DNA of 64,000 nt from Alkalispirochaeta sp. (GTDB lineage: Bacteria > Spirochaetota > Spirochaetia > DSM-27196 > Alkalispirochaetaceae): the NCBI GenBank assembly GCA_965601925.1, contig OZ271854.1:3104001-3168000 (forward strand), read 5' to 3'. Position numbers: made by a program. The number at the start of each line of letters is the position of its first letter. Within the stretch, counting starts at the first letter, position 1. Below are positions 33,001 to 39,000 of this stretch, one piece after another.

Positions 33001-36000
33001 AGGCGGGGTGCGCTTAGTCGCCGTCGCCCGCCCACCGGTCGAACGTGACGCCCCGCGCCTCGTCCAGGCGCGCGATTAATCGTACCGGGTCGTCGTCGTG
33101 AAGCACCAAATTTCTGCTGCGACGAAGCAAAAACCCCTCGTCCACCATAGCGTCGAAGAAACGGAGTAACGGATTGTAGAAGCCCGCCACATCGAGTAGA
33201 CCCACCGGCTTGCCGTGAAGGCCGATCTGGGCCCAACTCAGCACCTCCGAGAGTTCCTCCAGGGTACCGAATCCGCCGGGTAGTGCGATGAAGCCGTCGC
33301 TTCGGTCCATCATCTCCCGTTTGCGCTCGTGCATGGACGTGACGATGGTGAGCTCCGTCAACCCTGGGTGGGCGATCTCGCGGTCTTCCAGGTGTTTGGG
33401 AATCACACCCAGAACCTCACCGCCCCGCGAGAGCGTGGCGTCGGCGACGATTCCCATGAGACCCGCCTTCCCTCCGCCGTACACCAACCGTGCGCCGGCA
33501 TCAACGATCGCCGTACCGAGGGAACGGGCCGCGGCCTCGTAACGGACGTCGCTACCGGGTGAGGACCCGCAGTACACACATATCGAGTTCATGAATCGAT
33601 CTTCTCCTTGCCGATGTTCGACGGCCGTAACCGTGCGTCGAGACGGTCCAGCGTGGCGGCTACACGGCTCCGTCCCGCAAGCTCAGCGGGTCGCAACGTC
33701 CCGGTACGATGAAGCTCGCGACACGCCTCGGCGTACGGGATACGGGCAAGCCCGGCTATGATACGACTCCCGCGGTCGACCAGCTTTTTGTTGGTGGGAT
33801 CGACCTGCACCATGAAGTTACCCTTGATGCGTCCCAACCGCGCCATCGTGGCGGTCGAAACGGTGTTGAGGATGAGCTTGAGCGCGAGACGGCGGTATAG
33901 ATCGGAGAGAGTCTCCCGCATCACCAACGGTATTGCGGTGTAGCGTGTGGATTCGTCGTCGACACCCCCGCCGATTGAGGACCGCGCGTTCGGATGGTCC
34001 GTCGCGTGTGCGGCACCAACCGCGACGTGTATACGGTCGGCACCGACGGAACGCTCCTCCCGCAACGCCGCCCCGACGCGCTCACCGTCCGTCTCACCGG
34101 CGCTTATTCCGATAAAGAGGGCGCCGTCTTCCGAAGAACGCTCCGCGAGCCCGTCGATTCCGATGCGATATTCGGCCAGTGCACGCGACGAAAGGGGCGG
34201 TGGTGAGTCGATGAAGCGCTGCGGGGCGGCAAGCTCCTCGTATACGTCACGACCCCACTCCAGCCCGCGGGGAGCGCGCAGCAGCATATCGCGCCACGCC
34301 TTCTCGGTCTGCAGTCGCGCATGTTTCGGAAAGGCCCACGACGGCGGTGCGTTGCCCTCGGATGCGGCGCGCATGGGCGGGAGATTAAACGTCGGCGTGC
34401 GCTCCGACGTGTCGCTGAAGACGTCCAGGAGGTATCGGTCTGCGAGGTAGGTCACCAGACCGCCGCGGCGATACACCTCCTCTTCCGCCTCGACAAGGCG
34501 TGCGAGTGTCGCTACCGTGTCGTCCGACTGCAGAGAGGCGAGGAGACGATCGAAGTGATGAGCATACGACTCCTCGCTCAACGCCCCGTCGCCTTGGAGC
34601 CGACGAATCGCGTCGTCCATGGCCGACCCTACGACGAGCAACTCGGCACTCGTCGCCTGCATACGCGTCGATCCGGCGATCGCCATGGCGCCGGTCGTGA
34701 GGTCTAGTGCGACGACTTTCGGATGCTCTATTAGTTCTCGCGACCGTTCGGTTCGGGAGATCAACAACTCAGTCGGATTATTGTACACGAAAAAGACGGA
34801 CGCGCCGCGTTCCAAGGCTTCCCAGGCGGTGCCGATCACCGACGAGGTTTCCCCACCTTCGGAGATTGCAATGCACAGATCGCCCTTGCCGATGCCGAGG
34901 TCGACCATTTGACGGCGGCCGAATATCTGGAAGTCTTCGAAGCTTTCTACCGACTTTATGAGCGCCCGGTCGCCACCGGTGATGATACCGGCCGCGCGAT
35001 CGGCGATTTCAGCATCCGCATCGAGCCACGCGCGACGCCACATCGTCTCCAGAAGTACCGCAAGGCGACCCGTGGAGCCGCACCCGGAGATACGCAGTCT
35101 CCCGCCGTTTCGGATCGTCCGTACGATCGCCCCGGAGAGGGAGCGCCACGCGTCGCCGCCGATGGTGCGGCGGGCGACCGGTGCGATATCTTCGTCGACC
35201 GCAAGAAGTGCCCGTATTCCGGCCCGCGTGTCGCCGGCGATCGTGTCGCTAAGCGTGGATGTCGCCGGATGGGATTGCTCGGTTACGAGATGACCCAGAT
35301 GAAACTGCGTCTCCTCGTCGACGAATCGGCGCGCCTCTCCATCCGCGGCGATCCTTTGTATGCGTCGGGCGTGACGCAGGAGGATCCGCGGAAGATGAAA
35401 GCAGCCCTTCCACTTGCCGCCCTTCTGCTGCGTCGAGGGCGTCCCGTCGCGATGGAGATATCCGTACCACTCGTCGAACTCGGGATCGCGAAAACGGTCC
35501 CACGTATAACGTTCGATCCGGCTGTGCCACTCGCGAAACGGTTCGGTATCGCCTTCGCGTTGCGACGTATCGGCGTCGGCGGCGACCAACGCGGCGTACA
35601 TCGACTCCAGATGAACCCACCACAATTTCATATCGTGTTCGAGTTTCTCCGGCGCGTGCCCCGCGTAGTCTTGAAAGTAGAGTATGCCGTCGTGCTCCGC
35701 ATCCCATCCGCGCTCAAACGTCCACAACAGCGCCTGTCGCGCGCGCTCGATCCACTCCGTATGTCCGAGCTCTTCGGCGGCCTCAATGGCCATCCACAGC
35801 GCCTCGGCGGCGTGGCCGGGATTGAGAAGACGTCCGTCCATGCCGTCGGGATGCGACCCGTCCGCCAACACGTGCTCGAAAACCGCGCGACGCTCGGCGT
35901 CGATGTGGCGCCCCAGAATCACCGATGCGTTGTCCTCCAGCACACCGACGAGTCCGCGCTCGTCCAAGCCGACACCGTCGCCGCCGATCGTCCGCGCAAA

Positions 36001-39000
36001 TACGTCGGCCATGTTGAGCTGAATCATGGGAAGCGACATCGCGAGGGTCGGGCGCGATCCGGTCACCGTCTTGGTCCAGCGCCCCTTGGGACGGAGCGAC
36101 CGTTCGCGTACCCTGCGCCACGACCGACGGGCGACCGTCGCCGCCTCGTCGGAATCGGAGGCGGCCGCATACTCGGCCATTGCCATGGCGGCAAAACAAT
36201 CGGAGAAGATGTTATAGGGCTCCACCAACGGCGTCCCGTCGCGTAAGAGCGAAAAGTACCAGTCGCCCGACTCCGAGCGGCCGTGGCGCAACAAAAAATC
36301 GGCGCCCAGCGCGGCGAGATCGAGCCAATCTCCACGCCGCTCGACGGTGCGATAGAGGTGAGAGAACATCCACACCTGGCGCGCTTGCAGCCAGACGAAC
36401 TTGTCGGTATCGAAGACCGTTCCGTCGCGCTCCAAGCACGTGAAGTATCCGCCGTGCTTACGGTCCGGGGAGTGGCGTTCCCAGAACGGAATGACGCGGT
36501 CCAGTAGTTCGGAATAGTACGTTTCGGCCGTACGGTCGCTCGGGATCGGGTTCATTTTATTGCTCCTGCGGTAATGCCTTTGATGAAGTACCGAGACATG
36601 AACATGTAGAGAATCAACATCGGAAGTATCGCTATCGAGAGCGCGGCAAAGACCAACGCCCAGTTGATCTGATACTGTCCGAAGAAGGTGCTGATACCCA
36701 CCGGCAGCGTCTTGAGGCGATCGGTGCGCACGAAGACGAGGGGAAAGAAAAAATCGTTCCAGATCGGGACCATGTTGTAAATCGTGACTAACGCGATCGA
36801 CGGCGCCGAAAGAGGTAGGGCGACGCGTCGATAGATTCCGAAATCGTTAGCTCCGTCGATGCGCGCCGCGTCCTCCAGATCCTGCGGTATGGTTCGCATG
36901 AAGCCGGCGAGAATGAACACCGTGGAGGGAATACCCATCGCGGCGAACACGAGAATCAGTGCCGCGTGGGAGTCCAGGAGTCCCATCCGCCGCACGATCA
37001 AAAAAAGGGGGATGACCGCCGCCTTGAGCGGTAGCATGATACCGGCGAGAAACAGCATGTAAATCGCCGTGTTGAGGCGATACCGGTAGCGCGCGATGCC
37101 GAACGACGCCATGGAACCGAAGAGCAGCACGCCGACCATGGCGATCACGGTCACGAACACGCTGTTTCGGATATAGCGACCGAAGCGTCCGTCTACCCAT
37201 ACGGTGCGGTAATTGTCGAGGACCCACTCTCGGGGTACGCCGAAGGGGTGTTGGAAGATCTCCCGTGTCGTTTTGAACGACGAGAGTACCATGTTCACGA
37301 GGGGGTAGAGCACCACGACCGCGTAGGCGATCATGACGATCTCGACGGTGAGATATACCGCGCGTTTGATCGGTGACGAGGTGGCCAGATCGATATCGAA
37401 GATCACATCTCCACCTCGCGTGTTCGGAGTCCCAGAATTGAGGCGAGCGAGAAGGCAAAGGTGAGCACGTAGATGAGGACACCGATCGACGAGCCGATGC
37501 CGATCTCGGGAATCCCCGTGTCCACGCTCCCGAATGCGGTGCGATAGAAGAGGGTGCCGATGGTGTCGGTGGAGAAGAACGGTCCCGCGGAGAGACCGGC
37601 CATCGTGAACACCTGCTCAAAGACGTTGAGGCTCCCGATCATCGTGAGAACGGTGATGATCGTGATCGCAGGAACGATCAGCGGGAGGACGACACGGAAG
37701 AACACCGTCGTCTCACGCGCCCCGTCGAGATATGCCGCTTCGATACACGCCTTCGGTACGTTGTTGATCGCCGCATAAAACACCAGCGTCGGAAATCCGA
37801 GCCAGCGCCACATGTTGACCGTGATAATCGCGTAGGTAGCCAACCCCGCCTCGCCCAGCCACGGTCGTGCCGCTCCTTCCGCGCCGACGGCGCGGAGAAG
37901 TTGATTGATCAGTCCGTAGTTGGGGTTAAGATACAGACGCCATAGAAAGCCCACCGCCACGATGGAAAAGAGCACGGGGATGAAGAAGATGCGCTGAAAG
38001 ATCTTGGAGCCGGGAATGCTTCGGCTCAAGAAATATCCAAATGCCAAACCGAGTAGGTTCTGCACCGCCATCGTGACCGCAAACCACCGCACGTTGTTGG
38101 CCAGGGCGTTCCACAGCCGTTCGTTATATGGAAACTCGAAGAAGATCGTGCGAAAGTTGGCCAAGCCGACAAATGCGCCCCGCTCAGTACTACGCCACTC
38201 AAATGCGCTGTTGAACAGTGAGAGAAACAACGGCGCGATAATGAATGTAAGTACGATCGCGAGCGCCGGCGTTACGAAAAAGGCGATCCAGAGATTTCGT
38301 TGGAGCGTTCTATGCGCCATATCGAGCCGTCGAGCGAACCGCGACGCGAACTCATCGACGTCGCGGCGCACCCAGTCTCAGTCTTGAAACGGCTCGAACC
38401 ACGTCGCGAGGCCGCGGTGCACATCCTCGGCGGCGTCGGCGGCGGTGATCTCTCCCGCGAACATCTCCTGCAGCGCCGATTGCAGTAAGGTCGAACCGGT
38501 CGGCTGTTCGTACCGGAATCCTACCAAATGAACATACGGCGTGGCGTGCTCGTTTAGGCGGATCAACTCTCCGAGAAACGGATCGTCGACGGACACGCCG
38601 GGAACGTCCGACTTCAACTTGAGGTTCTCAGCCAGAAATTGGCCCGCCTCGCGACTCATCAGAAACGATAGGAAGCGTGTAGCCGCCTCGGGATGTTCGG
38701 TCGTTGCCGAGGCGCCGAACGAACCGTCGACAAAACTCGATACGTATCGCGTTCCCCCTCGCTCCGCAGGCGGCCCGGCAAAGATGCCGATCTCGAGAGA
38801 CGGATTTTGCGACGCGAAGTAGGCGGCCTCCCAACTCCCGCCGATGAAGTGTCCGGCACCCTCGTTTATGAAGCTCGCCTGCATATCGACGTATCCGACA
38901 CCCATGTAACCGTCGGGCATGAACGGTATGAGCTCGTTGAGTACGTCGAGCGCAGCGACGTATCGGCGATCGGTGAAGTCGGTCTCGCCGGTGATCACGG

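Follow-up and report, generated by a model that had tools for sequence, protein, structure and literature searches.

We identify in Alkalispirochaeta sp. a 988-aa protein that joins an N-acylglucosamine 2-epimerase (AGE) to a single-chain, MurQ-like module with the fold of glucokinase regulatory protein (GKRP), and we think it somewhat probable that this module represents a widespread family of phosphate-independent MurNAc lactyl etherases, cytoplasmic as well as exported, that arose by an uneven duplication of MurQ in bacteria. The prediction draws on fold, residue conservation, gene context, co-occurrence across genomes and the signal-peptide-like ends of a sister subfamily. As its neighbors are peptidoglycan-scavenging genes, the module is very likely a lactyl etherase of the MurNAc type; that it acts on free, unphosphorylated MurNAc is predicted with slightly better than even confidence, and with rather more once lactyl etherase activity is granted. 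The function, given as unknown in the preliminary description of this DNA, can be narrowed to that of a predicted lactyl etherase, the reaction itself being something that we infer.

The window analyzed, a stretch of 64,000 nucleotides, holds the fusion gene as a genuine open reading frame (33589..36555, minus strand) with an intact AGE domain and a 582-aa GKRP-fold module. It lies downstream of minus-strand genes for a sugar ABC solute-binding protein (38378..39643, 421 aa, PF01547), ABC permease 1 (37403..38371, 322 aa, PF00528) and ABC permease 2 (36552..37406, 284 aa), and the permease 2 stop overlaps the fusion gene start by 4 bases. The fusion gene had been placed at the end of this operon; it does follow the transporter genes but is not last in the run, because a LOG-family nucleotide phosphoribohydrolase-like gene (33014..33592, minus strand, TIGR00730) comes next, overlapping it by 4 bases. 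Since no LOG-family gene was present in any relative locus examined, this gene probably falls outside the conserved unit. A scan for promoters and terminators gave chance-level matches only.

The module comprises, all on the minus strand, SIS-1, the first MurQ repeat (about residues 407-656; 34588..35337), SIS-2, a degenerate second MurQ repeat (about residues 668-892; 33880..34554), and a lid carrying N922, K924 and R928 (about residues 893-976; 33628..33879). The two-SIS plus lid architecture of GKRP in one chain, proposed earlier, was borne out by a structure model of the module (pLDDT 92.9), which superimposed on a GKRP structure with a Z score of 38.8 and an rmsd of 2.9 over 498 residues. 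The top seven Foldseek matches were, as described before, GKRP chains (TMq 0.61-0.70, vs 0.35-0.36 for MurQ), and MurQ again aligned to the module in two pieces. Comparison with a MurQ repeat by hhalign gave probabilities of 99.95 for SIS-1 and 99.5 for SIS-2 with the lid, and the two MurQ family models (TIGR00274, PRK05441) matched in two pieces, with scores short of the curated thresholds: one reached 93.8 bits where 302 are required, the other 130.7 where 168 are. PF22645 (GKRP_SIS_N) matched residues 477-575 of the fusion protein. For PF22198 (GKRP_SIS_2) no match was listed at E<=1 in 57 of 57 members, although the Pfam copy searched may lack this model, and a language-model score reached only 0.79; when SIS-2 was compared with the GKRP profile, the lid alone matched.

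The preliminary description had the second MurQ glutamate replaced by an invariant methionine, which would suggest a crippled catalytic site. Neither point held: methionine occupies the M505 position in 71 of the 120 close homologs and in 27 of the 119 diverse ones, and this position lies in the dead half-site, while the second SIS domain supplies the true equivalent of MurQ Glu83, E718, which is retained in 120/120 close homologs. Hadi et al. are said to have found Glu83 and Glu114 of MurQ to be catalytic. SIS-1 retains the two ligand loops, with E537 and E540 equivalent to E111 and E114 of E. coli MurQ, and SIS-2 retains only the Glu83 loop, in which E718 (codon 34402-34404) is followed by an invariant R719. 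Both E540 and E718 occur in 119/119 diverse members, so loss of the catalytic glutamate was rejected, and the retention of E718 in SIS-2 leaves one composite active site whole. Lid residue K924 is present in 118 of the 119, and N922, K924 and R928 correspond to N512, K514 and R518 of GKRP. By these alignments, E540, E718, N922, K924 and R928 would come together from SIS-1, SIS-2 and the lid in a single ligand site. According to a figure legend of PMC4109836, the GKRP site consists of loops and Glu153 of SIS-1, Glu348 of SIS-2, and Asn512, Lys514 and Arg518 of the lid; the module divides its active site alike, and E718 would be the counterpart of Glu348 by way of MurQ Glu83.

Each half of the module corresponds to one repeat of MurQ (E. 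coli b2428; PDB 4s12, 4lzj, 4m0d), and equivalents of Glu83, Glu111, Glu114, Asn231, Lys233 and Arg237 are all present. Whereas MurQ is a single repeat of about 300 aa that forms a homodimer with two sites, the module joins two repeats in a single chain of about 580 aa and has just one site. The residues that differ from MurQ are Thr72 (Ala/Ser in the module), Ala140 (Glu), Ser/Cys141 (Gly), Cys84 (Arg) and Lys196 (Gln). In the phosphate loop, the alanine invariant in MurQ (57/57) is glutamate in 111 of 119 diverse members, a change that speaks for a free MurNAc substrate, and glycine occupies the Ser/Cys141 position in 109; E566 of SIS-1 is alanine, and Q633 lysine, in 57 of 57 MurQ sequences. 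The phosphate-loop hydroxyls of T495, S565 and T570 are retained. These hydroxyls, together with lid K924 and the phosphate-binding Ser-x-Gly loop of GKRP, which the module also has, count against a free MurNAc substrate.

Like the module, GKRP (GCKR; PDB 4bb9, 4bba, 3w0l, 4lc9, 4ly9) carries SIS-1, SIS-2 and lid in a single chain. Its repeat 1 also lacks the Glu83 loop, and both have an insert ahead of the last SIS-1 strand that MurQ lacks. Identity between the two is 16-20%, and GKRP has MurQ's Thr72 and Lys196, where the module family differs. The characters of the module are mixed between MurQ-like and GKRP-like. Its sequence profile scored MurQ at 176 bits vs 106-115 bits for GKRP, and its C-terminal half aligned with a MurQ monomer at Z 18.4-18.6 (22-25% identity) vs Z 13.1-16.3 (15-18%) for GKRP; because MurQ is nearer on both counts, shared descent with GKRP is unsupported. 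The earlier claim that the MurQ duplication behind GKRP also exists in bacteria therefore stands in so far as a single-chain, two-SIS plus lid MurQ duplicate is widespread there, but not as to its being the same duplication. Perhaps the duplication happened once, in bacteria, and was passed to eukaryotes, which we advance tentatively; the alternative is that it happened twice. An Atlas search gave one eukaryotic cluster at a score of 0.93. Two candidate protist members (P0245 and P0253) were rejected, their nearest matches being bacterial at about 50%.

The AGE domain (residues 1-401; 35353..36555, minus strand; PF07221 at 36-383) aligned over its full length with a known AGE (E 9.6e-113), and its nearest relatives were true AGEs (E 1e-112 to 1e-74), with cellobiose epimerases at 1e-18 or weaker. 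It scored 451 of 600 bits against the NCBIfam AGE equivalog NF052547. It resembles the AGEs of Anabaena (2gz6), Nostoc (6f04) and pig (1fp3) in fold and histidines, and differs from them in being fused to the module. His248 and His387 of the fusion align with His239 and His372 of 2gz6, which we take to be the catalytic histidines, and both are present in 10 of 10 AGE-module fusions. The best 120 homologs include 10 with PF07221 (the fusion gene among them), in agreement with the earlier count, and AGE and module are also adjacent separate genes in G595, G600, G506 and L014. The N-termini of P0012 and P0016 gave no match as decayed AGE domains, and the 962-aa reading frame of L133 was rejected as a fusion, being probably a spurious upstream extension.

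Because its whole chain has the GKRP fold and 10 of the 120 best homologs are fused to an enzyme, the module could be taken for a regulator in the manner of GKRP, one that responds to a sugar phosphate and acts on a kinase or on the epimerase fused to it. We consider this highly improbable: the catalytic-type residues do not vary, stand-alone forms make up 108 of those 120 homologs, and only 7 of 102 loci have AGE near the module. AGE is found equally beside canonical MurQ (5/8 vs 5/10 matched operons), and was rejected as a module-specific partner for that reason. Glucokinase inhibition is moreover a late trait of jawed vertebrates, gained via a loop insertion, according to passages of 10.64898/2026.05.08.723886. 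GKRP is a regulator, but the module shows no sign of such a role. The AGE fusion is the least surprising part of the protein, two neighbors in one operon having been joined once.

The module family comprises 694 clusters at 50% identity (E<=1e-30), and within one class 202 of 351 genomes carry it. It had been called unrecognised; it is large, but PF22645 matches 57 of 57 members, and sources name many of them MurNAc-6P etherase or sugar phosphate isomerase. One subfamily of 680-790 aa has signal-peptide-like ends in 104 of 119 members; in the near subfamily 0 of 108 have them, and the controls gave 0/18 for MurQ and 10/10 for solute-binding proteins. All 40 members of the 680-790-aa subfamily that were checked share the site residues of the module. 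This subfamily looks exported, judging from its ends, and we know of no ATP-dependent kinase that acts outside the cytoplasm.

A peptidoglycan gene was found in 52 of 102 non-redundant module loci (17 of 56 after 70% clustering), with NamZ in 35, an AmiE-like hydrolase in 39 and a GlcD-like FAD oxidase in 4; the other 50 had none within the DNA covered. This peptidoglycan-scavenging context is common to MurQ and the module. NamZ liberates free MurNAc, as stated in passages of PMC8054146. Unlike MurQ, the module occurs without MurK, AnmK or MurP: AnmK or MurK was found in 18 of 18 module loci that also hold canonical MurQ, vs 4 of 84 that do not. Among genomes at least 90% complete, AnmK or MurK matched in 0 of 18 with the module only, in 5 of 5 with module and MurQ, and in 21 of 30 with MurQ only (26 of 35 with MurQ). 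Against a kinase-free reading, three of 24 module-only genomes matched AnmK, those three being 81-86% complete, and in a second class 1 of 5 module-only genomes had MurK-like genes. Canonical MurQ, MurK, AnmK and MurP are all absent from the Alkalispirochaeta sp. genome, whose single PTS IIC is mannitol-type.

The module thus occurs where MurQ and the kinase MurK would be. Orthologs of the solute-binding protein (46-65% identity) head module operons and MurQ+MurK operons alike, and behind one orthologous ABC transporter MurK was present in 8 of 8 MurQ operons and 0 of 10 module operons, these being chosen from loci already collected, with kin not independent. In the permease tree, MurQ and module operons were interleaved.

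If the module were instead simply a single-chain etherase of MurNAc-6-phosphate, of the kind represented by MurQ and by the GKRPs of protists and lancelets, the retained phosphate-loop hydroxyls and lid lysine would be accounted for, in agreement with the MurNAc-6P etherase activity of non-mammalian GKRPs given in 10.64898/2026.05.08.723886; we regard this reading as unlikely, though it is the weightiest alternative. The phosphate would then come from an unrecognised ROK kinase or be already on the sugar through a teichoic-acid anchor. Wall teichoic acids attach to MurNAc O6 via a ManNAc-GlcNAc-phosphate linker, which in that version would also provide ManNAc for AGE. The G600 operon includes a ROK kinase, and the module has a phosphodiester glycosidase (PF09992) beside it or close by in 4 loci and genes of the sulfatase family in 16. 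This explanation leaves unaccounted for the 18 of 102 loci with both module and canonical MurQ, the restriction of MurK to MurQ behind the same transporter, and the Ala140, Cys84 and Lys196 replacements relative to 57 MurQ sequences, and only its teichoic-acid version is compatible with an exported subfamily. The kinases in the operons of G600 and G353 (GHMP in the latter) and the three ROK kinases of the Alkalispirochaeta sp. genome count against the free-MurNAc reading. So does the failure of an internal prediction: variants with a MurQ-like Ala-Thr loop, expected beside kinases, had a kinase nearby in 0 of the 12 loci covered, with the loop itself read for 10 of them.

MurQ chemistry on another substrate would fit the four fixed active-site differences from MurQ, the coexistence of module and MurQ, the paralogs among uncharacterised glycan genes, and module fusions to GH2, GH67N/DUF4838, SGNH esterase and GNAT domains. 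The substrate could be a modified muramic acid (de-N-acetylated, N-glycolyl, 6-O-acetyl, peptide- or sugar-linked, or an AGE-made manno epimer) or the lactyl ether of a sugar from another bacterial polysaccharide, or the module could be an N-acetyl sugar dehydratase or epimerase. This seems improbable to us, because the one-for-one swap with MurQ+MurK behind an orthologous transporter indicates the same solute, and NamZ and AmiE-like neighbors give plain MurNAc.

For the preferred reading, phosphate-independent cleavage of MurNAc, we infer both what the transporter carries and where the ManNAc comes from: the ABC transporter would take up N-acetyl sugars set free by cell-wall digestion. The two fused MurQ copies, as one chain with one composite active site, would then convert free MurNAc to GlcNAc and D-lactate, using E718 and E540 to cleave the lactyl ether through elimination and hydration as in MurQ. 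They would in this way replace MurK and MurQ together. The fused AGE, also acting on free sugars, would turn ManNAc into GlcNAc, the common product, which an ordinary ROK kinase would phosphorylate only afterwards.

Passages of 10.1101/312876 give MurQ as the only known lactyl etherase, requiring a phosphorylated substrate. A lactyl etherase acting on free MurNAc has been proposed for mycobacteria, in which BLAST found no murQ-like gene in the species concerned and L-lactate was suggested as product (passages of 10.1101/312876; PMC13691567), and the passages of PMC13691567 postulate the activity and name no enzyme behind it. The module has the same predicted activity, removal of lactate from unphosphorylated MurNAc, but, as its family is detectable with MurQ, it is probably not the mycobacterial enzyme. 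Neither a bacterial two-repeat form nor a phosphate-independent one turned up in the literature that we searched; what is new here is the module in place of MurQ+MurK, and its kinase-free reading.

Bacterial two-repeat proteins are now at hand for the question of GKRP origin. If the prediction is true, anaerobic necromass feeders would need neither MurK nor AnmK nor a PTS to turn cell-wall MurNAc into GlcNAc and lactate, a family of hundreds of clusters would supply a third entry route for MurNAc, and the reading of peptidoglycan turnover in genomes of Spirochaetia, Lentisphaeria and Aminicenantes would change.

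The 988-aa fusion ORF (33589..36555 of the window, minus strand) stands in the gene order solute-binding protein, two permeases, fusion, LOG-family gene, with a 4-base overlap at either fusion end. Its residues 1-401 are the N-acylglucosamine 2-epimerase (AGE) part (PF07221; E 9.6e-113 against PDB 2gz6), in which His248 and His387 align to the catalytic residues His239 and His372 of 2gz6. Residues 407-988 form the module (SIS-1, SIS-2 and lid; predicted structure pLDDT 92.9), for which the best seven Foldseek matches were all GKRP chains (TMq 0.61-0.70, versus 0.35-0.36 for MurQ), bearing out the joining of an AGE epimerase to a GKRP-fold module proposed in the preliminary description. 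In a comparison against 48,161 representative chains GKRP again took the top rank (Z 36.9; runner-up 26.7), and comparison with it by VIA gave Z 38.8 and an rmsd of 2.9 across 498 residues. The fusion is genuine and not an artefact, because it was present in 10 of the best 120 homologs and these ten, together with two proteins carrying a different N-terminal domain, formed one clade; the sister of this clade is a stand-alone group, where one module has AGE as the adjoining gene. The closest named relative belongs to a Spirochaetales genome (82% identity). Modules were also fused to DUF4838/GH67N, GH2, DUF6259, SGNH esterase, GNAT or an unknown 270-aa domain (proteins P0124, P0139, P0141, P0144, P0158, P0012 and P0016), and in loci L193, L189 and L187 (genomes G488, G576 and G587) the module gene was split by a frameshift or stop, through decay or assembly error. 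A separate glycan-use cluster lies at 20701-31814 of the window, with a plus-strand AraC regulator and ABC transporter facing minus-strand sulfatase, GH2, GH42 and AraC genes.

In profile alignments SIS-1 covered MurQ residues 2-207 with a probability of 99.95. SIS-2 and the lid together covered residues 42-264 (probability 99.5; 56.7 for SIS-2 by itself). E718 fell on Glu83 and E540 on Glu114 of E. coli MurQ, which we take to be its catalytic pair, and both were invariant in 120/120 close homologs and in the 119/119 full-length proteins of 151 representatives, so that the active site of the module is, by alignment, complete. The invariant methionine that had been described in place of the second MurQ glutamate was not upheld, as that position is Met in 71/120 close and 27/119 diverse homologs and lies in the abandoned half-site. 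We consider the module very probably a lactyl etherase, and a regulatory role highly improbable. Relative to 57 canonical MurQ sequences, Thr72 is replaced by Ala or Ser, Ala140 by Glu (111/119), Ser/Cys141 by Gly (109/119), and Cys84 by Arg and Lys196 by Gln (119/119 each). Action on a substrate other than MurNAc or its 6-phosphate is unlikely. Hydroxyls of the phosphate loop and the lysine of the lid are still present in the module, and their retention favors MurNAc-6-phosphate as its predicted substrate, a reading that we regard as doubtful.

A figure legend on GKRP (PMC4109836) describes a site split as in the module, with Glu153 and loops in SIS-1, Glu348 in SIS-2 and Asn512/Lys514/Arg518 in the lid. 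The module resembles GKRP, and differs from MurQ, in this split polarity, in loss of the Glu83 loop from repeat 1 and in a late SIS-1 insert. However, it is closer to MurQ by profile (176 bits, versus 106-115 for GKRP), its SIS-2 plus lid fold is nearer MurQ (Z 18.4-18.6) than GKRP (Z 13.1-16.3), and GKRP retains Thr72 and Lys196 like MurQ, where the module family differs. These comparisons argue against a special link to GKRP. The large bacterial family with the GKRP build that had been proposed is real, with a predicted function. As only vertebrate, fast-evolving GKRPs were compared, one origin or two are both compatible with the data. A preprint (10.64898/2026.05.08.723886) derives GKRP from uneven murQ duplication and reports etherase activity for non-mammalian GKRPs; its parts 1-3 of 4 name no bacterial two-repeat form, as previously stated, and the words 'bacteria' and 'MurQ' were absent from the searched text of its companion.

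A subfamily of 680-790 aa (P0287-P0405, P0205, P0219 and P0252), whose named members are mostly Aminicenantes plus one myxobacterium, has signal-peptide-like or lipoprotein-like N-termini. By a hydropathy rule (controls: MurQ 0/18, binding proteins 10/10, NamZ 26/33), signal-peptide-like N-termini occurred in 104 of the best 119 matches to a longer member, versus 0/108 near homologs. An alignment of 40 of these 119 showed no variation at 18 site positions, which agreed with the window protein except for Ser494->Ala and Ser565->Thr, both common in the family. The subfamily is thus a SIS-fold enzyme with its site intact that seems to be exported, which adds to the case for a missing kinase. Two family members, P0245 and P0253, contain low-complexity stretches of eukaryotic look.

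The gene context of the module points to MurNAc as substrate. NamZ, which releases MurNAc from peptidoglycan ends and is described as mostly accompanying MurQ (PMC8054146), was present in 35 of 102 module loci (111 before 90% clustering, 82 from scans and the remainder from genomes and the window; many are short contigs). These loci also held an AmiE-like beta-lactamase-fold hydrolase (39/102), a sodium symporter (32/102), AnmK (21/102), ABC permeases (19/102), canonical MurQ (18/102), AGE (7/102) and a GlcD-like FAD oxidase (4/102), with at least one peptidoglycan gene in 52/102, or 17/56 at 70% clustering. Canonical MurQ was not found in the window's own genome, where a NamZ-GH20-ABC operon lies away from the module; in G576, a genome of the same genus, that operon adjoins it.

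The MurNAc-6-phosphate used by MurQ comes from MurK, AnmK or the PTS protein MurP. AnmK or MurK was present in 18/18 module loci with canonical MurQ versus 4/84 without, and of the five loci underlying these four cases, four end inside or shortly after AnmK. Among 30 module-bearing genomes of the phylum, all six with MurQ had AnmK or MurK, and three of the other 24 (81-86% complete) had an AnmK match, one with a weak MurK match also. At >=90% completeness and <=5% contamination, AnmK or MurK was found in 0/18 genomes with the module but not MurQ, 5/5 with both and 21/30 MurQ-only controls, two further controls having a MurP-like gene adjoining murQ; the MurK search used one protein query, identical for module and MurQ-only groups. 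PTS IIC matches, in 9/30 genomes, were weak, and that of the own genome was mannitol-type. In the class of genome G607 (Lentisphaeria), 202/351 genomes had the module family, canonical MurQ occurred in 6/50 tested carriers and AnmK in 0/5; MurK-like genes, in 1/5, argue against a kinase-free route. Contrary to what such a route predicts, no kinase was found near MurQ-like Ala-Thr loop variants in 12/12 loci. These paralogs (L285-L296) are often second copies in Lentisphaeria genomes, amid large unknown glycan-related genes. The comparative evidence added by the window locus suggests that the module replaces MurQ and its kinase together.

The sharpest comparison concerned operons with one orthologous ABC transporter, whose binding proteins, in the operons that have one, share 46-65% identity. 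Among these operons, chosen from known loci and not blind, MurK was in 8/8 ending in MurQ (one cut by a contig end) and 0/10 ending in the module. When 20 operons were arranged on a tree by their permeases, module and MurQ operons interleaved, with module locus L193 sister to MurQ locus L243 (support 92) and L138/L014 sister to L242 (support 100), and the exchange therefore occurred more than once. AGE was in 5/8 MurQ and 5/10 module operons, and therefore goes with the operon, whichever etherase is present. The Spirochaetia MurQ+MurK operons with AGE and this transporter are L233, L234, L242, L245 and L247, two beside a NagB-PIG-L fusion. A HAD phosphatase, possibly a MupP-like step, lies between permeases and module in G360/G382 (L139:10132-10761), with relatives in MurQ operons (HAD loci: L139, L149, L247 and L250).

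Phosphorylation of MurNAc before the module acts could come from a ROK kinase in the G600 operon, a GHMP kinase with GalU in that of G353, or three ROK kinases of the own genome, but all of these fit phosphorylation of the product GlcNAc. Teichoic-acid anchors could also supply MurNAc already phosphorylated, and four loci have a phosphodiester glycosidase close to the module. Overall, we lean slightly towards free MurNAc as the substrate of the predicted etherase.

NagA had no match in the own genome, G595, G600 or G598. A PIG-L deacetylase adjoining a SIS protein, with a ROK gene close by (own genome; L240:375-2250), may substitute for NagA as an alternative GlcNAc route. Neither NanE nor a second AGE was found in the own genome, and AGE would turn ManNAc into GlcNAc, the ManNAc being imported or made by the N-acetylneuraminate lyase of this genome (315 bits; above the 281 cut-off of one model, below the 382 of another). 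MurQ chemistry consists of C2 proton loss, lactate elimination and water addition. With free MurNAc brought in by the ABC transporter, its open-chain aldehyde would likewise lose the C2 proton, eliminate lactate and add water, giving GlcNAc and D-lactate.
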